Positions 30-34,228 of a stretch of DNA of 45,588 nt are shown here, one piece after another. Each line of letters starts with the position of its first letter. The first letter of the stretch is position 1. Source of the stretch: Vectrevirus PDP21P3. The stretch lies in sequence record OZ035804.1, one strand, 5' to 3'. Made by a program: the position numbers and the translations under genes. Below the pieces are notes generated by a model that was given only the letters and a program-made list of their open reading frames with translations, was not told where the DNA came from and made no database searches.

Positions 30-329
30 GTGAGCGTACACAATAAACATGCAGCTACAGAGGATGAGGTTGGCATTCTGCATGGGGCTATTACCAAAAT
101 CTTCAATAAGAAAGCACAGGCAATACTGGACACTATAGAAGAAGACCCTGATGCAGCATTACATTTAGTGTCTGGTAAGGATATTGGTGCGATGTGTAAG
201 TGGGTTCTTGATAACGGCATTACCGCCACACCTGCTGCACAGCAGGAAGAGTCCAAGTTATCTAAGCGCCTCAAGGCTATCCGAGAGGCATCCAGTGGTA
301 AGATAATTCAATTCACTAAGGAGGATTGA
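30..329 (+). CDS. putative terminase small subunit (gp18-like)
   Basis: 99-aa ORF, GTG start 7 nt after GGAGG; lies between holin and terL as in T7 (17.5-18-19); stop overlaps terL ATG. Assignment by synteny only. Confidence 0.5.
   Translation: MSVHNKHAATEDEVGILHGAITKIFNKKAQAILDTIEEDPDAALHLVSGKDIGAMCKWVLDNGITATPAAQQEESKLSKRLKAIREASSGKIIQFTKED
121..143 (+). promoter_or_regulatory. phage RNAP promoter-like site inside terS
   Basis: caaTACTGGACACTATAGAAGAa matches the repeated ATTTACTGGACACTATAGAAGAG consensus of this genome (SP6-like); predicted +1 G at 138. Confidence 0.5.
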
Positions 330-2227
330 TGGCTAAGGCAAGAGAATCACAAGCGGAGGCTCTTGCCAGATGGGAGATGCTACAGGAGTTACAGCAGACC
401 TTTCCTTACACAGCGGAAGGTTTGCTTCTCTTTGCAGATACAGTTATTCATAACTTAATTGCAGGCAACCCTCATCTGATTCGTATGCAGGCTGATATCT
501 TGAAGTTCCTATTTTACGGACACAAGTACCGCCTCATCGAAGCGCCTCGTGGTATCGCTAAGACAACACTATCAGCAATCTATACGGTATTCCGTATTAT
601 TCATGAACCGCATAAGCGTATCATGGTTGTGTCCCAAAACGCCAAGCGAGCAGAGGAAATCGCAGGTTGGGTAGTTAAAATCTTCCGTGGCTTAGACTTT
701 CTTGAGTTTATGCTGCCGGATATCTACGCTGGGGACCGTGCATCCGTTAAGGCGTTTGAGATTCATTACACCCTACGTGGTAGTGATAAGTCTCCTTCTG
801 TATCCTGTTACTCAATCGAAGCAGGTATGCAGGGTGCTCGTGCTGATATTATTCTAGCGGATGACGTAGAGTCGATGCAGAATGCTCGTACGGCAGCGGG
901 CCGTGCCTTGCTTGAGGAACTGACTAAGGAGTTTGAATCTATCAACCAGTTTGGGGATATCATTTACCTTGGTACACCTCAGAACGTAAACTCTATCTAC
1001 AACAACCTACCTGCTCGTGGTTACTCTGTTCGTATCTGGACTGCGCGTTACCCTTCAGTAGAGCAAGAGCAATGTTATGGCGACTTCCTTGCACCTATGA
1101 TTGTTCAAGATATGAAGGACAACCCAGCACTTCGCTCAGGGTACGGGTTGGATGGTAATAGTGGTGCACCTTGTGCCCCTGAAATGTATGATGATGAAGT
1201 CCTGATTGAGAAGGAAATCTCTCAGGGTACTGCTAAGTTCCAGCTTCAGTTCATGCTTAACACTCGCATGATGGATGCTGACAGATACCCATTACGCCTG
1301 AACAATCTAATCTTCACCTCGTTTGGTACAGAGGAAGTCCCTGTGATGCCTACGTGGAGTAATGATTCCATAAACATCATTGGTGATGCACCTAAGTATG
1401 GTAACAAGCCTACGGATTTCATGTACAGACCTGTAGCTCGCCCATACGAATGGGGTGCTGTCTCCCGCAAGATTATGTATATTGACCCTGCGGGTGGTGG
1501 TAAGAACGGAGATGAGACGGGTGTAGCCATCGTATTCCTGCACGGCACATTCATTTATGTGTATCAGTGCTTTGGTGTACCTGGCGGATACCGAGAGTCG
1601 TCCCTGAATCGCATTGTGCAGGCCGCAAAGCAGGCGGGTGTTAAAGAGGTATTCATTGAGAAGAACTTTGGTCATGGCGCGTTTGAGGCGGTAATTAAGC
1701 CGTACTTTGAACGAGAGTGGCCTGTAACTCTGGAAGAGGATTACGCCACCGGACAGAAAGAATTGCGTATCATTGAGACGCTGGAGCCGCTCATGGCAGC
1801 CCATAGGCTTATCTTCAATGCAGAGATGGTGAAGTCAGACTTTGAGTCGGTACAGCACTATCCGCTTGAACTACGCATGTCCTACAGCCTTTTCAATCAA
1901 ATGTCGAACATCACGATTGAGAAGAACAGCCTCCGGCACGATGACCGCTTAGACGCTCTGTATGGCGCTATACGGCAATTAACTTCTCAGATAGACTATG
2001 ATGAGGTTACACGGATTAATCGCCTCAGAGCGCAGGAGATGCGCGATTACATCCATGCTATGAACACACCTCACCTCCGTAGGGCGATGCTCTATGGAGA
2101 TTATGGCACTGAGCGAAGAGTAACCAACACTTCCGTGGCTATGCAGCAAAGAGTGTACGGTCAGAATTACAGGAGTAAATCGGCAAATCGAAATACACTT
2201 TCTGCAAGGATTTCAAGGACTTATTAA
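329..2227 (+). CDS. terminase large subunit (gp19-like)
   Basis: ~632 aa; ATG 4 nt after AAGGAGG; C-terminal nuclease-type motif IDPAGGGKNGDETG; size and position typical of T7-group terL. Confidence 0.9.
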   Translation: MAKARESQAEALARWEMLQELQQTFPYTAEGLLLFADTVIHNLIAGNPHLIRMQADILKFLFYGHKYRLIEAPRGIAKTTLSAIYTVFRIIHEPHKRIMVVSQNAKRAEEIAGWVVKIFRGLDFLEFMLPDIYAGDRASVKAFEIHYTLRGSDKSPSVSCYSIEAGMQGARADIILADDVESMQNARTAAGRALLEELTKEFESINQFGDIIYLGTPQNVNSIYNNLPARGYSVRIWTARYPSVEQEQCYGDFLAPMIVQDMKDNPALRSGYGLDGNSGAPCAPEMYDDEVLIEKEISQGTAKFQLQFMLNTRMMDADRYPLRLNNLIFTSFGTEEVPVMPTWSNDSINIIGDAPKYGNKPTDFMYRPVARPYEWGAVSRKIMYIDPAGGGKNGDETGVAIVFLHGTFIYVYQCFGVPGGYRESSLNRIVQAAKQAGVKEVFIEKNFGHGAFEAVIKPYFEREWPVTLEEDYATGQKELRIIETLEPLMAAHRLIFNAEMVKSDFESVQHYPLELRMSYSLFNQMSNITIEKNSLRHDDRLDALYGAIRQLTSQIDYDEVTRINRLRAQEMRDYIHAMNTPHLRRAMLYGDYGTERRVTNTSVAMQQRVYGQNYRSKSANRNTLSARISRTY

Positions 2228-2248
2228 TTACTGGACACTATAGAAGGA
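2226..2248 (+). promoter_or_regulatory. phage RNAP promoter
   Basis: aatTACTGGACACTATAGAAGGa immediately after terL stop; +1 G at 2243. Confidence 0.6.
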
Positions 2249-2381
2249 AGGCCCAGATAATAAGAGAAATAACAAGGATAATATAGGTTAACCTAGGTTA
2301 TATAGGTATGCCTTAGTATGGGTGTACTCCTGTACACCCTATTCCTTACTTCCTTACTATACTTACATAATAGGAGAGAGA

Positions 2382-2660
2382 ATGTCTAATAGTTATAGTA
2401 CACAACCCCTTACCGGTAAGTCTGCTCGTAAGCAGATACAACCTGTGAGTGAAGCCCTGATGCTTCCTGTAGTTTACGAGGACACTGTTGAGAAGAAAGG
2501 TGATGTTATTAATGATGCCACCAAATCAGGTAAGCAGAAAGGAGCCATGGTGTGTCTTGATACACATGATACACTGGTTATTGCTATCGCAGTTGATGGC
2601 AAAGAAGATTCCAATTGGCTGACCACGTTATTAGCGGTCACGACTATTACCCCAGCTTAA
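2382..2660 (+). CDS. hypothetical small protein, paralog A of tandem pair
   Basis: ATG after tAGGAGAGAG RBS (ORF track starts earlier at 2322 without RBS); shares SGKQKG-MV...IAIA...W..TT...TP-A pattern with the next ORF. Confidence 0.5.
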   Translation: MSNSYSTQPLTGKSARKQIQPVSEALMLPVVYEDTVEKKGDVINDATKSGKQKGAMVCLDTHDTLVIAIAVDGKEDSNWLTTLLAVTTITPA

Positions 2661-2672
2661 GAGGAGAATTAC

Positions 2673-2960
2673 ATGTCTAATTATGGAAACGCAGGTACTG
2701 TTACTGGTCAAGCTTTTCGAGTAAAAACTGTACAAACCACTGCAACGGCAATCCCTTTGCCTATTGTTGCTGAAGCAGACCTTAAGAAGAAAGATCACCC
2801 TATCAACATTAAACACCTATCTGGCAAACAGAAAGGCTCCATGGTTGCTGTAGAGAAAGCAGACAACTCCTTGTACATCGCTATTGCACGTGGTAGTGAA
2901 CCAACTGACCCTTGGGATGCAACCACTATGGAGGAGACACCTGTAACCCCTGTAGCTTAA
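2673..2960 (+). CDS. hypothetical small protein, paralog B of tandem pair
   Basis: 95 aa, RBS gAGGAGaatt ATG; clear sequence similarity to 2382..2660 product. Confidence 0.55.
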   Translation: MSNYGNAGTVTGQAFRVKTVQTTATAIPLPIVAEADLKKKDHPINIKHLSGKQKGSMVAVEKADNSLYIAIARGSEPTDPWDATTMEETPVTPVA

Positions 2961-2981
2961 TTGTAACAGATGAGGTCGGTG

Positions 2982-3326
2982 ATGCTTAATAAATACTTCA
3001 AGCGACGCGAGTTCGCTTGCCGTTGTGGGTGCGGTACATCCACTGTTGATGCTGAGTTATTACAGGTAGTCACAGATGTGCGTGAGCACTTTGGCGTCCC
3101 TGTAGTTATTACTTCTGGACACCGCTGTGCTAAGCACAATGCTAATGTGGAAGGGGCTAAGAACTCCATGCATCTTACTGGAAAGGCTGCTGATATTAAG
3201 GTACAAGGAATTACACCTTACCGTGTATGGTCTTATCTAACAGCACGCTACCCAAATAAATATGGCATTGGGTCTTACCCTAACTTCACCCATATTGATG
3301 TACGGGATGGGTGTGCACGATGGTAG
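2982..3326 (+). CDS. endolysin, zinc peptidase M15-like (VanY/D-Ala-D-Ala carboxypeptidase fold)
   Basis: SGHRCAKHN...GAKNSMHLTGKAADI...FTHIDVRDG matches the H-x-H/D zinc-ligand pattern of M15 peptidases; start chosen at second ATG, 5 nt after GAGG (track start 2970 lacks RBS). Confidence 0.8.
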   Translation: MLNKYFKRREFACRCGCGTSTVDAELLQVVTDVREHFGVPVVITSGHRCAKHNANVEGAKNSMHLTGKAADIKVQGITPYRVWSYLTARYPNKYGIGSYPNFTHIDVRDGCARW

Positions 3327-3900: not shown

Positions 3901-3923
3901 ATTTACTGGACACTATAGAAGAG
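3901..3923 (+). promoter_or_regulatory. phage RNAP promoter (consensus copy)
   Basis: ATTTACTGGACACTATAGAAGAG, +1 G at 3918, directly upstream of tailspike 1. Confidence 0.7.
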
Positions 3924-4002
3924 ATAAGATAGTGCCGTTCTTTTGAGCGGCCTATTACTAGCCAATCTTCATGGTGAGGGTTGGGAAGTAATAGGAGATA
4001 AA

Positions 4003-5910
4003 ATGGCTAAATTAACCAAACCTAATACTGAAGGAATCTTGCATAAGGAAGACTCTTTGTATGAGTACCTTGATGCGAGAGAGAGTATAGTTTTAACATC
4101 AAAGCCGTTTGGTGCAGTAGGTGATGCTACTACTGATGATACGGAGGTTATAGCTGCTTCACTAAACTCTCAAAAAGCTGTCACAGTCTCAGACGGTGTA
4201 TTCTCTAGCTCTGGTATTAATAGTAATTACTGTAACTTAGACGGTAGAGGTAGCGGGGTGCTAAGTCACCGTTCCAGTACAGGTAACTACTTAGTATTTA
4301 ACAATCTACGTGCAGGTCGCTTAAGTAATATTACGGTAGAGAGTAATAAGGCGACTGATGATACTCAGGGACAGCAGGTATCTCTTGCTGGTGGCAGTGA
4401 TGTTACTGTAAGTGACGTTAACTTCTCAAACGTTAAAGGTACTGGTTTCAGTTTAATAGCATACCCTAATGGTGAGCAACCTAATGGGCTTATGATTAAA
4501 GGCATTCGAGGTAGCTACTCCGGCTATGCTACTAATAAGGCTGCTGGGTGCGTACTTGCTGACTCCTCAGTTAACTCTCTCATAGATAACGTAATTGCTA
4601 AGAGCTATCCTCAGTTCGGAGCTGTAGAGCTGAAAGGTACAGCCAGTTATAACATAGTAAGTAATGTTATAGGGGCAGATTGCCAGCATGTAACTTACAA
4701 TGGCACTGAAGGGCCAATAGCTCCTTCTAATAACCTTATCAAAGGGGTGATGGCTAATAACCCTAAGTATGCAGCGGTTGTTGCAGGAAAAGGAAGTACG
4801 AACTTAATCTCAGACGTGCTCGTAGATTACTCAACTTCTGATGCTAGGCAGGCTCATGGTGTTACCGTAGAAGGGTCTGATAACGTCATAAATAATGTGC
4901 TTATGTCAGGATGTGATGGTACTAACTCTTTAGGACAAGGGCAGACTGCTACAATTGCACGCTTTATAGGTACAGCTACTAACAACTATGCGTCTGTATT
5001 TCCTAGCTACAGTGCTACAGGTGTTATTACTTTCGAATCCGGCTCTACCCGTAACTTCGTAGAGGTAAAGCACCCTGGCAGGAGAAACGACCTTCTCAGT
5101 TCTGCTAGTACTATTGACGGTGCAGCTACTATTGACGGCACTAGTAATAGTAACGTAGTGCACGCACCCGCATTAGGACAGTACATAGGTAGTATGTCAG
5201 GTAGGTTCGAATGGAGGGTTAAGTCCATGTCACTTCCGTCAGGCGTTCTTACCTCGGCTGATAAGTACAGAATGCTTGGGGATGGTGCTGTGTCATTAGC
5301 TGTAGGTGGGGGCACTTCTTCTCAAGTTCGCCTATTTACTTCTGATGGTACCTCTCGTACAGTGTCCCTCACCAACGGTAACGTGCGTCTTTCTACCAGT
5401 AGCACAGGCTATTTGCAGTTAGGTGCTGATGCAATGACCCCAGATAGTACTGATACATACGCATTAGGTTCCGCCAGTAGAGCATGGTCTGGCGGTTTTA
5501 CTCAAGCAGCATTCACTGTTACCTCAGATGCTCGGTGTAAAACAGAACCTCTTACTATCTCAGATGCTTTACTGGATGCTTGGTCTGAAGTTGACTTTGT
5601 GCAGTTTCAGTATTTGGATCGGGTTGAGGAGAAGGGTGCAGACTCAGCGAGATGGCACTTTGGTGTCATCGCTCAGCGAGCTAAGGAGGCTTTCGAACGT
5701 CACGGCATAGATGCACACCGCTATGGCTTCTTGTGCTTCGACAGTTGGGATGATGTATACGAGGAAGATGCCAATGGCTCTCGTAAACTGATTACACCAG
5801 CAGGTTCCCGCTACGGTATTCGTTACGAGGAAGTATTGATATTAGAGGCTGCGTTGATGCGGCGGACTATTAAGCGTATGCAGGAAGCACTAGCTGCCCT
5901 TCCTAAGTAA
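4003..5910 (+). CDS. tailspike 1, pectate-lyase-like beta-helix with C-terminal intramolecular chaperone (S74-like) domain
   Basis: ATG 5 nt after AGGAGA (track start 3943 is a TTG); FGAVGDATTDDTEVI pectate-lyase-type motif; C-terminal ~130 aa with TSDARCK autoproteolysis-type motif as in endosialidase/K5-lyase-type tail proteins. Confidence 0.8.
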   Translation: MAKLTKPNTEGILHKEDSLYEYLDARESIVLTSKPFGAVGDATTDDTEVIAASLNSQKAVTVSDGVFSSSGINSNYCNLDGRGSGVLSHRSSTGNYLVFNNLRAGRLSNITVESNKATDDTQGQQVSLAGGSDVTVSDVNFSNVKGTGFSLIAYPNGEQPNGLMIKGIRGSYSGYATNKAAGCVLADSSVNSLIDNVIAKSYPQFGAVELKGTASYNIVSNVIGADCQHVTYNGTEGPIAPSNNLIKGVMANNPKYAAVVAGKGSTNLISDVLVDYSTSDARQAHGVTVEGSDNVINNVLMSGCDGTNSLGQGQTATIARFIGTATNNYASVFPSYSATGVITFESGSTRNFVEVKHPGRRNDLLSSASTIDGAATIDGTSNSNVVHAPALGQYIGSMSGRFEWRVKSMSLPSGVLTSADKYRMLGDGAVSLAVGGGTSSQVRLFTSDGTSRTVSLTNGNVRLSTSSTGYLQLGADAMTPDSTDTYALGSASRAWSGGFTQAAFTVTSDARCKTEPLTISDALLDAWSEVDFVQFQYLDRVEEKGADSARWHFGVIAQRAKEAFERHGIDAHRYGFLCFDSWDDVYEEDANGSRKLITPAGSRYGIRYEEVLILEAALMRRTIKRMQEALAALPK

Positions 5911-5995: not shown

Positions 5996-7792
5996 ATGCT
6001 TCAAAGATTAAGCACTGCCTTGGTGCGGTATAAAAGTAAAATGTCAGGTGCAATAGGTCGTATATTGCAAGAAAGACTAGAAGATACGTTAAATGCAAAA
6101 GACTTTGGTGCAAAATGTAATGGAGTGGATGATGATACAACCCCTCTCAACAATGCAGCAACAGCAGCACGCCTTAAAGGAGTCAAACTCGTAATAACAG
6201 GGTCTTGCCTAACAACTGACACAGTTAACTTTAGAGAGGTACTGCTAGAGGCATCAAGTGCTACGTTTATTATTAAACACGAGGGTGTTGGTGTTATCTT
6301 GGGTGGTAATGCAAGTGTGCACAATAACCCCAAGCAAGAGTTTGGTATGACAGAGAGACTTGTTGGGTCTGCATCTCTAGACGCTCCTGATGTACGTATA
6401 ATTGGTGCCAAGTGCCAACACATTAGCATAGAGAAGTCTGATTACCTTCAGCTATATGCAGATTCAGATGAATCAGTATATGAAAAGGACTACTCTATCG
6501 CGTATTCCACTTTTACCTTAAAGTATGTTAAAACAATCAACATACGCGGGATTAATCGTGGTTGGATTAATGAGAACCAGTTCTTCTTAAATAGAACACA
6601 TTTTGTGACAATACAAGATGGCAATTACTCTCATAACCACAATAAATTCTTTGGTGGCACTATGGAAGAGAAAGGTGCTATAGATATACAGAGAGGTCAT
6701 AATAATCACTTCTTTGGGCTTCGATTCGAAAGAGATGGCTCTAAGCCAGATAGGACACTAGACATCAAGTTTGGTTCTTATACATGGAATAATTCAATTG
6801 AAGCATCGTGGCTCAGCTCTGCTGCATATAGCAACGAACCCTATAACCCAAATAATCTTGTCACTGTTACAGATTTAGGTAGAGGTAATGCTGTACGCCA
6901 TATACAAGAAGATTTAACAGATGAGATCCCTTTGCTTTCACTAAGTGGAAAGGCAGACTACATCTCTAGTACCAACCTAGGTACTGTAAGCCAACCTGTT
7001 GTTATAACTAACTTCCCTAATATATATAATATTAGACACCTAGTATCAAGCAAGTTTTCTGTTGTAAGAAATTTCTACCCTATATGGGAGTCTGGTAATT
7101 TAGAGGTAAGGAATGGAGACTTATTCACATTCTGCTCTGATGTACCTATCTTCCGTATGCGTCTATTTATATTAGATGCGCAAGGTAATGTAATCACTGA
7201 GCAATTAGATGATGATGTATCATTCCCTGGTAGTTCTTGGAATGCACAATTAAGTATGTATACAAATACTACCAATATTGATGTTGCTAAAATACGTGTC
7301 ACTAATAGTTCTCGTATTAAATACATTCGTCTTGTCTTGATGTCTGGTGGTTCATCTCAAGATAGAATCTTTGAATATGCAAGAGTGACTGCAAGATACT
7401 ATAAGTATTCAAGCTCAACACCTCGTAAGAATATGGATGTTGCCTTAACCTCTTGCTCTGCTATGATGCCTTATAAGGGCGATGCAGAGATGCAATATAT
7501 GGGTTACGGTCTGCCTGTTGTTAAGATGGAAGATACGACTAAGAAGGTTAATATAACACGTAATAGGTATTCTGTTATTAATGTGTCTGGTTCTTCTATT
7601 AAGGTAAGGGTTTCAGGTAGTCTTATATCCGCAGATTCTAACGACTTACATCTTGTATATACAGAGGGTTCCGCTAATAAAATTATACCTATTCAGTCTT
7701 TATCGGATGATACTATTACTTTAACTTCTACTGCACCTACTACTATAGTAGCCAATAGCATGGTGGATGTAGTTTGTACAAAGCCGATGTGA
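5996..7792 (+). CDS. tailspike 2 (second receptor-binding/depolymerase-like protein)
   Basis: 598 aa, ATG 4 nt after AAAGGAGG; N-terminal DFGAKCNGVDDDT pectate-lyase-like motif; noticeably AT-rich; no phage promoter of its own. Confidence 0.7.
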   Translation: MLQRLSTALVRYKSKMSGAIGRILQERLEDTLNAKDFGAKCNGVDDDTTPLNNAATAARLKGVKLVITGSCLTTDTVNFREVLLEASSATFIIKHEGVGVILGGNASVHNNPKQEFGMTERLVGSASLDAPDVRIIGAKCQHISIEKSDYLQLYADSDESVYEKDYSIAYSTFTLKYVKTINIRGINRGWINENQFFLNRTHFVTIQDGNYSHNHNKFFGGTMEEKGAIDIQRGHNNHFFGLRFERDGSKPDRTLDIKFGSYTWNNSIEASWLSSAAYSNEPYNPNNLVTVTDLGRGNAVRHIQEDLTDEIPLLSLSGKADYISSTNLGTVSQPVVITNFPNIYNIRHLVSSKFSVVRNFYPIWESGNLEVRNGDLFTFCSDVPIFRMRLFILDAQGNVITEQLDDDVSFPGSSWNAQLSMYTNTTNIDVAKIRVTNSSRIKYIRLVLMSGGSSQDRIFEYARVTARYYKYSSSTPRKNMDVALTSCSAMMPYKGDAEMQYMGYGLPVVKMEDTTKKVNITRNRYSVINVSGSSIKVRVSGSLISADSNDLHLVYTEGSANKIIPIQSLSDDTITLTSTAPTTIVANSMVDVVCTKPM

Positions 7793-33022: not shown

Positions 33023-34228
33023 ATGTCTACGCCGAATAACCTGACCAACGTTGCAGTCTCCGCTTCCGGTGAGGTAGACAGCCTGCTCATTGAGAAATTC
33101 AATGGTAAGGTAAATGAGCAGTACCTGAAAGGTGAGAACATCATGTCCTACTTTGATGTTCAGACTGTTACTGGTACTAACACTGTAAGCAACAAATACT
33201 TGGGTGAAACCGAGTTGCAGGTTCTGGCGCCGGGTCAGTCTCCGGCTGCAACCTCCACTCAGGCAGATAAAAACCAGTTGGTAATTGATGCCACCGTTAT
33301 CGCTCGTAACACTGTTGCTCACCTACATGACGTACAGGGTGACATTGATAGCCTGAAGCCTAAGCTGGCAACCAACCAAGCTAAGCAACTGAAGCGTATG
33401 GAAGATGAAATGCTGATTCAGCAGATGCTGCTGGGCGGTATTGCTAACACTCAGGCTAAGCGTACCAATCCGCGTGTGAAAGGTCATGGCTTCTCTGTTA
33501 ACGTCGAAGTAAACGAAGGTGAAGCACTGGTTAACCCACAGTATGTAATGGCGGCGGTAGAGTTCGCTCTGGAACAGCAGCTTGAGCAGGAAGTTGACAT
33601 CTCCGATGTAGCCATCCTGATGCCGTGGCGCTATTTCAACGTACTGCGTGATGCGGATCGTATCGTTGACAAGAGCTACACCATTAGCCAGTCTGGTGCA
33701 ACCATTCATGGCTTCGTACTGTCTTCCTACAACTGTCCAGTTATCCCATCTAACCGATTCCCGAAATTTGCTCAAGGTCAGAAGCATCACCTGTTGTCTA
33801 ACGAAGACAACGGCTACCGCTATGACCCTGTTGCAGAAATGAACGGCGCGATTGCTGTACTGTTCACTGCCGATGCACTGTTGGTGGGACGCTCCATTGA
33901 TGTTACTGGCGATATCTTCTATGAGAAGAAAGAGAAGACCTACTACATCGACACCTTTATGTCTGAGGGTGCAATCCCTGATCGTTGGGAAGCAGTTTCT
34001 GTTGTGACCACTAAGCGTAATGTCACCACTGGTGCTGCTGACAGTACCGCTGCTGCACAGCATACTCAGGTTCTGAACCGTGCACAGCGCAAAGCTGTAT
34101 ACGTCAAGAATGCTGCTCCGGCAGGTGATGCCGCTGCTGCTACTCTTTCTGCTGAAGACTTGGTTGCTGCTGTCCGTGCTGTAATGGCAAATGACATTAA
34201 GCCGACTGCAATGAAACCTACTGAGTAA
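33023..34228 (+). CDS. major capsid protein
   Basis: 401 aa; own promoter, strong RBS AAGGAGG, highly biased codon usage, followed by terminator. Confidence 0.85.
   Translation: MSTPNNLTNVAVSASGEVDSLLIEKFNGKVNEQYLKGENIMSYFDVQTVTGTNTVSNKYLGETELQVLAPGQSPAATSTQADKNQLVIDATVIARNTVAHLHDVQGDIDSLKPKLATNQAKQLKRMEDEMLIQQMLLGGIANTQAKRTNPRVKGHGFSVNVEVNEGEALVNPQYVMAAVEFALEQQLEQEVDISDVAILMPWRYFNVLRDADRIVDKSYTISQSGATIHGFVLSSYNCPVIPSNRFPKFAQGQKHHLLSNEDNGYRYDPVAEMNGAIAVLFTADALLVGRSIDVTGDIFYEKKEKTYYIDTFMSEGAIPDRWEAVSVVTTKRNVTTGAADSTAAAQHTQVLNRAQRKAVYVKNAAPAGDAAAATLSAEDLVAAVRAVMANDIKPTAMKPTE

Follow-up and report, generated by a model that had tools for sequence, protein, structure and literature searches.

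The decoration proteins pb10 of phage T5 and Hoc of phage T4 combine a capsid-anchor domain with an Ig-like display domain, and each is encoded by a single gene. In the Autographiviridae PhiM1 and Ar-KM, a short decoration protein is accompanied by a longer relative that shares its capsid-binding motif and carries an added fibre or spike (PMC11440229; 10.64898/2026.05.18.726046). P2_50 of Vibrio phage Peru-2, a 12-kDa protein, was recognised by mass spectrometry and then by cryo-EM as an abundant minor capsid protein at the vertices (PMC13320782). In Klebsiella phage Kp7 (ON148527, Molineuxvirinae), gp45, gp46 and gp47 were identified by mass spectrometry of silver-stained gel bands from purified virions and were named minor capsid proteins by the preprint authors, the mass spectrometry documenting presence in the virion and not position (10.1101/2024.05.19.594906). 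The GenBank labels in ON148527 are 'minor capsid protein' and 'minor capsid protein with Ig-domain'.

The locus analysed here consists of two adjacent small genes of Vectrevirus PDP21P3 (OZ035804.1), a K1E-like phage of the SP6/K1E group (Autographiviridae, Molineuxvirinae). The window is the whole stretch of 45,588 nucleotides that was analysed, and all positions in Table 1 refer to it. The first-pass annotation, made from the letters of the sequence, had placed the pair between terminase and endolysin, which was confirmed by profile matches of the flanking genes to the T7-type large terminase (NCBIfam termin_lrg_T7, 1e-167) and to an M15 endolysin (Pfam Peptidase_M15_3, 1e-30), the latter following the second paralog gene after 9 nt. 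An 801-base query spanning the pair is 100% identical to a second PDP21P3 record, OZ035769.1 (45,588 bp), and 92.5% identical to K1E, whose counterparts are genes 41 and 42. In the window the large terminase gene is unbroken; in K1E, phD2B and the metagenomic contig L004 its parts are separated by a homing-endonuclease (HNH) gene.

In Kp7, two proteins of 88 aa (Kp7_45 and Kp7_46) and one of 178 aa that has an Ig domain (Kp7_47) are likewise encoded between a large terminase and an M15 endolysin. The 92-aa window protein is 40% identical to Kp7_45 (E 5e-18) and the 95-aa protein 48% identical to Kp7_46 (E 1e-18), Kp7_47 matches a window protein at E 3e-9, and the two phages share their subfamily and have near-identical major capsid proteins. 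Kp7 differs in having the third paralog with its C-terminal Ig domain, and the mass spectrometry evidence is Kp7's. No virion proteomics or capsid cryo-EM was found in the literature for K1E, K1-5, SP6 or Vectrevirus phages; going by orthology, gp41 and gp42 are presumably present in PDP21P3 virions. The major capsid protein of the window, their presumed binding partner, is near-identical to PDB 7y3t ('phage major capsid protein', 363 aa, 7 chains), which is probably the Kp7 capsid. The link to 7y3t runs through the major capsid protein only; PDB searches returned no minor-protein chain of the family, and no paper citing the entry was found. The match covers residues 1-362 of the window ORF, which has about 39 extra C-terminal residues.

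Further orthologs of the window pair are K1E gp41/gp42 and SP6 gene 42, 42.3 and neighbours (PHROG 2725), all uncharacterised and misnamed in RefSeq; SP6 gene 42 shares 50% identity with a window protein (tblastn), and SP6 differs from the window phage in its third, truncated copy of 81 aa.

Kp7_47 and a further family protein, P0268, follow the logic of pb10 and Hoc, in that a capsid-anchor domain is combined with a pb10-like Ig domain and the anchor is N-terminal as in pb10. However, the anchor of the present family is unrelated to theirs in sequence and has no fold match, the window proteins are anchor-only, and the family occurs as paralog sets where pb10 and Hoc are single genes. The alpha-claw proteins of PhiM1 and Ar-KM form helix-turn-helix dimers at two-fold axes, whereas a beta-rich fold is predicted for the present family, which has its fusions in threes; they were rejected as members of the same family on the fold description and the lack of a match. 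Peru-2 P2_50 resembles the window proteins as a small, separately encoded minor capsid protein of a T7-like phage, but its fold is Ig-like with an added helix, and it assembles into pentamers on pentons; it was rejected as a member on the fold description and the lack of a match in PDB searches. Peru-2, like PhiM1 and Ar-KM, thus offers an analogous short-plus-long decoration set of a different fold.

Table 1. Positions in the window of the paralog pair, its upstream region and other features named in the text
Feature	Position	Strand	Details
Small terminase ORF	30-329
Exact copy of promoter 13-mer	129-141	+	inside small terminase ORF
Large terminase	326-2227		633 aa; T7-type
SP6-type phage RNA polymerase promoter AATTACTGGACACTATAGAAGG	about 2226-2247	+	extended consensus shared with the other promoters of the window
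Promoter 13-mer GACACTATAGAAG	2234-2246	+
AT-rich 5' leader	2248-2381	+	two palindromes, pyrimidine-rich tract, GGAG
Imperfect palindrome	2278-2301		12-nt arms, 83% complementary
GC-rich leader hairpin GGGTGTAC-TCCT-GTACACCC	2320-2339	+	perfect 8-bp stem, 4-nt loop
Alternative GTG start of first ORF	2322		112 aa; inside leader hairpin
Shine-Dalgarno of 92-aa ORF	2373-2376		GGAG
Position-1 paralog gene	2382-2660	+	92 aa, ATG, 9.9 kDa, pI 5.2; ortholog of K1E gp41, Kp7 gp45
Shine-Dalgarno of 95-aa ORF	2661-2666		own GAGGAG
Position-2 paralog gene	2673-2960	+	95 aa, ATG, 10.1 kDa, pI 6.7; ortholog of K1E gp42, Kp7 gp46
M15 endolysin	2970-3326
Phage promoter near tailspike-like genes	3909-3921
First tailspike-like gene	3943-5910
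Second tailspike-like gene	5996-7792
Major capsid protein gene	33023-34228	+	401 aa; E 1.9e-177 to PDB 7y3t

Paralogy, copy number and age of the pair

The adjacent ORFs had been described in the first-pass annotation as clear paralogs, and BLASTP supports this with 36 identities in 93 positions (39%, E 7e-16) in an end-to-end alignment. The Smith-Waterman score of the pair was 135, compared to 26.3 ± 5.1 (maximum 62) in 2000 shuffles; with z = 21 the alignment is far better than the shuffled controls, and the paralogy stands. Among the shared motifs that had been listed, MSN, TG, SGKQKG(A/S)MV, IAIA and the C-terminal TP are in register, whereas KK.D.IN and W..TT are each one residue off in one copy, a trivial inaccuracy. 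The length of 92 aa was taken as correct for the first ORF, in preference to the longer GTG form, because all homologs start with M(S/A)N at an ATG.

At the nucleotide level the two genes are 52.5% identical, with 47% identity at third codon positions, and synonymous sites between them are saturated; the duplication is therefore old, with no sign of recent gene conversion. Both proteins match the PHROG 2725 profile over their full length (3e-40 for the 92-aa and 2.1e-46 for the 95-aa protein). Homologs numbered 87 for the 92-aa protein, most of them on contigs of ~44 kb, and 94 for the 95-aa protein, with E values down to 1e-50. In an alignment of 81 sequences including both window proteins, the columns T11, G12, K18, P30, S50, G51, K52, Q53, M57, A72, W81 and P93 were invariant, and the family hallmarks, namely the T-G of the N-arm, the S-G-K-Q...M loop, the conserved W and the C-terminal P, are present in both window proteins.

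By tblastn the family was found in 198 phage records, with hosts in Escherichia, Klebsiella, Vibrio, Salmonella, Proteus, Pseudomonas, Erwinia, Pectobacterium and Aeromonas. An HMM census of copy number found one, two or three copies of the domain in all 37 loci, always directly 3' of the large terminase gene and followed by the lysis genes (37/37), the annotated examples coming from Molineuxvirinae and Colwellvirinae. This terminase-family-lysis layout is seen in K1E, Kp7, FBKp16, PSK8, phD2B, Era103, Vp670, MGD2, BUCT553, HJG and metagenomic contigs. Two short copies are present in K1E, K1-5-like phages, UAB_Phi78, Proteus phage Pm5460 and phD2B; a long third copy of about 180-240 aa is added to two short ones in Kp7, FBKp16, CrRp3, PSK8 and KpnHY, and the shortened one in SP6. 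Era103, HJG, BUCT553 and MGD2 have one short and one or two long copies, and Vp670 a single copy. Often the last copy in the slot carries an additional module, which may be Ig-like, an esterase or of another kind.

In a neighbour-joining tree the position-1, position-2 and position-3 genes formed separate clades, the split between the first two spanning K1E, K1-5-like, SP6, Proteus, Citrobacter and Klebsiella phages. The 92-aa gene of the window falls in the position-1 clade and the 95-aa gene in the position-2 clade, so the window pair descends from an ancient set whose third, extended member is absent from this lineage. Both paralogs are conserved as separate clades, so that each is under selection. 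The clades and the conserved slot make the pair a standard, conserved feature of SP6/K1E-type phages. The first-pass annotation had considered such a tandem pair unusual in compact T7-type genomes, which is misleading given one to three copies in all relatives examined and their separate clades. As judged from the sequences, the pair is an old duplication, neither recent nor lineage-specific, and ordinary for this phage group.

A hybrid gene of 95 aa (P0093), in which a position-1 N-terminal half is joined to a position-2 C-terminal half within the stretch coding for SGKQKGAMV, was observed in two metagenome assemblies (L037 1632-1919 and L038 1023-1310). Its breakpoint corresponds to 2525-2551 / 2819-2845 of the window, and its neighbours are the terminase gene on one side and the beginning of the endolysin gene on the other, just inside which the contigs stop. 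Either the paralogs recombined, which would be a natural deletion of 294 nt, or the assembly collapsed here.

Promoter and leader of the two-gene message

A phage promoter had been noted ahead of the first copy, and both its core and its flanks agree with this. The 13-mer GACACTATAGAAG occurs in 8 exact copies in the window, all on the + strand, and with up to 2 mismatches 13 matches were found where 1.4 were expected, a number reached in 0/100 shuffles. The flanks conform to the consensus, and the extended consensus is the same as that of the promoter preceding the capsid gene. The promoter upstream of the first copy is also kept in relatives. By analogy with the SP6 promoter, transcription would start at G2243. 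The exact copy inside the small terminase ORF has an upstream flank that fits the consensus less well.

The description of an AT-rich leader with palindromes was likewise accurate, with a GC content of 34-38% against about 45% in the surroundings and two palindromes (Table 1). The fold of the whole leader was no more stable than that of shuffled sequences (z = -0.53), and conservation was restricted to the short hairpin. This was compared in the window and in the matching places of loci L001, L006 and L009-L030, where the shape is kept and the sequence changed, the arms being GGGAGGTA/TACCTCCC in SP6-like phages and GGGTACTC/GAGTACCC in Kp7 and FBKp16. A pyrimidine-rich tract always follows 3' of the hairpin, about 40-55 nt ahead of the start codon. 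The compensatory changes suggest that the hairpin is a functional RNA element, for which a processing or stability element or a partial terminator are candidate roles; the FBKp16 record has a terminator annotated where the hairpin sits.

Domain architecture and predicted structure

A profile search of 1.84 billion representatives returned 214 matches, and architectures were counted in the best 150 of these. Single-domain proteins made up 105 of the 150, 10 of them with a C-terminal extension of at least 50 aa, while 38 had three tandem domains in one chain and 7 had two detected domains. Four of these seven, at about 280 aa, are probably triples, and fusions of the family domain among the best 150 of 214 are almost always triple. 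Genes for triple fusions were located on contigs L002 (8001-8876) and L004 (7857-8708), both directly after the large terminase of T7-type phages. The triple-fusion proteins include P0181, P0182, P0329 and P0331, and a search with a triple-fusion profile found only 7 proteins.

The modules attached C-terminally to the domain are diverse. P0268 ends in an Ig-like domain (Pfam Ig_3, 2.5e-8; Hoc-like PHROG 2973, 2e-23), that of Kp7_47 resembles the T5 decoration protein pb10 (E about 1e-16), and the 558-aa family protein of Pseudomonas phage BUCT553 carries an SGNH esterase; other modules measure 140-350 aa, and several are uncharacterised and beta-rich.

The fold of the family domain is predicted to be a small beta-barrel. 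For the 95-aa protein, AF2 with 81 homologs gave an only moderate model (pLDDT 70, pTM 0.49), in which a beta-rich core of residues 30-85 has a pLDDT of about 80 and the N-terminal arm is disordered, residues 1-13 being below 50 and confidence staying low to about residue 30. A triple-fusion protein was modelled with pLDDT 78.6 and pTM 0.77, its domain cores reaching 85-90; this suggests that the three domains pack in a defined way. PDB sequence searches with the single proteins and with the family profile returned no matching chain, so that the fold family is structurally uncharacterised; no fold match was obtained to the solved decoration proteins lambda gpD/beta-tulip, Soc, Dec (OB-fold), Hoc/pb10 (Ig-type) and alpha-claw.

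Minor capsid reading of the pair and its rivals

The window pair most likely belongs to a conserved, ancient and uncharacterised family of virion proteins. The reading we consider probable is that the two are small accessory proteins of the virion, made late and most likely attached to the outside of the T=7 head as minor capsid (decoration) proteins. In its favour we count the orthology to the virion-detected Kp7 proteins, the fusion partners, which are typical of virion-surface proteins, the late-region synteny, the capsid-type promoter with the strong Shine-Dalgarno sequences, the triple fusions and the conservation of both paralogs.

The genes would be expressed late from their own promoter, giving a message composed of the leader and the two genes, each with a strong ribosome-binding site. 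Each product would be a domain of about 85 aa without any added module, with a flexible N-terminal arm in which T11-G12, R16 and K18 are conserved, a small beta-barrel core with the invariant SGKQ-G-M loop and the C-terminal TP. In the longer paralogs of relatives the same domain would act as N-terminal anchor for modules directed outward, such as the T5-pb10-like Ig, the SGNH esterase or other beta-rich modules. From its role as anchor of module-bearing paralogs and from the repeated three-copy fusions we infer that paralogs assemble together; they would do so side by side, probably in threes and possibly as a (pseudo)trimer. The number of domains per phage, however, is one, two or three, so that a unit of strictly three subunits cannot simply be deduced. 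PDP21P3 would have lost the third, module-bearing paralog, in which case the remaining pair would serve as cement or decoration, presumably stabilising the head, and not as adhesin.

More tentatively, and as a possibility we would not yet rely on, the family may constitute an undescribed modular capsid-anchor system of SP6-type Autographiviridae, in which a beta-barrel of new fold, arranged in threes, forms a socket on the head for an exchangeable Ig, esterase or lectin-like module. Such a system would be supplied by up to three separate paralogs or by a single-chain triple fusion, with K1E-type phages keeping two bare subunits. Should the domain indeed be a socket on the capsid to which Ig, esterase and other modules are naturally joined C-terminally, it would be a handle, already in place, for displaying cargo on phages that are in use against encapsulated E. 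coli and Klebsiella. Only the modular fusion in threes is of moderate interest. For hetero-oligomeric decoration proteins, the contrast between triple fusions and separate paralogs is a clean natural experiment. The general understanding of T7-type and SP6-type phage biology is unchanged.

The main rival of the capsid location is one on the tail or neck, where the proteins would be whisker, collar or adaptor-site fillers and the domain a docking module for receptor-binding or enzymatic proteins. Esterase and lipase enzymes are usually tail-borne rather than head-borne, and the domain stands N-terminal to the SGNH esterase in BUCT553, while a gene of Pseudomonas phage uligo that bears the label 'lipase' is among the family's matches. 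Annotations point the same way, with a member in Marinomonas phage CPP1m called 'tail fiber protein' and FBKp16_051 called 'possible neck whiskers protein', and a 'putative neck whiskers protein' (9occ, E 2e-11) is likewise among the matches of the Kp7_47 Ig domain. Nevertheless, that Ig domain is closest to phage Ig-domain proteins including the capsid decoration protein T5 pb10, and gp45-gp47 were named minor capsid proteins by the Kp7 authors, who to judge from their affiliations are structural biologists; a near-identical capsid protein is deposited as 7y3t. Relatives have separate tailspike or depolymerase genes, of which the window has two, and the window tailspikes lack the domain, the HMM finding only its two matches in the window. 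We regard a tail or neck position as unlikely on this evidence.

Still less probable is that the pair encodes non-structural late proteins, such as GroES-like assembly chaperones, anti-defence or host-takeover factors, with the mass spectrometry signal in Kp7 due to carry-over. This would be compatible with a localisation that is itself inferred, and the 92-aa protein has a very weak similarity to GroES (E 1.3). That match is not significant and covers half of the protein, and no significant sequence or fold match to GroES/cpn10 was found over the whole domain. Moreover, the Kp7 proteins come from gel bands of purified virions, structural proteins are typically the ones fused to display modules, Ig-like or other, and the genes lie in the late structural/lysis region behind a capsid-type promoter, all of which argues for the virion reading and makes a non-structural function very improbable.

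The identification as acetyl-CoA acetyltransferases (thiolases), for which only the propagated RefSeq and PHROG 2725 name speaks, is refuted for practical purposes: thiolases are about 390 aa long, have N- and C-terminal domains and need a catalytic Cys, while the window proteins have only 92-95 aa with no cysteine at all in the 95-aa protein, a predicted small beta-barrel fold, no Pfam match at E <= 1 and no NCBIfam match at E <= 0.01. The name is carried in RefSeq NC_007637, NC_008152, NC_019403 and others and in PHROG 2725, and its earliest use found was as 'putative', without evidence, in the UAB_Phi78 genome paper (PMC4837284). It misleads for dozens of therapeutic-candidate phages (K1E, K1-5, SP6-like, Proteus and Klebsiella phages), and 'minor capsid/virion protein family' is proposed in its place.

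Downstream of the lysis genes, the two large tailspike-like genes of the window are arranged in tandem as in K1-5, with a phage promoter nearby (Table 1). The second has no Pfam match, and the first encodes a C-terminal endosialidase-chaperone domain (Peptidase_S74, 5.6e-15).
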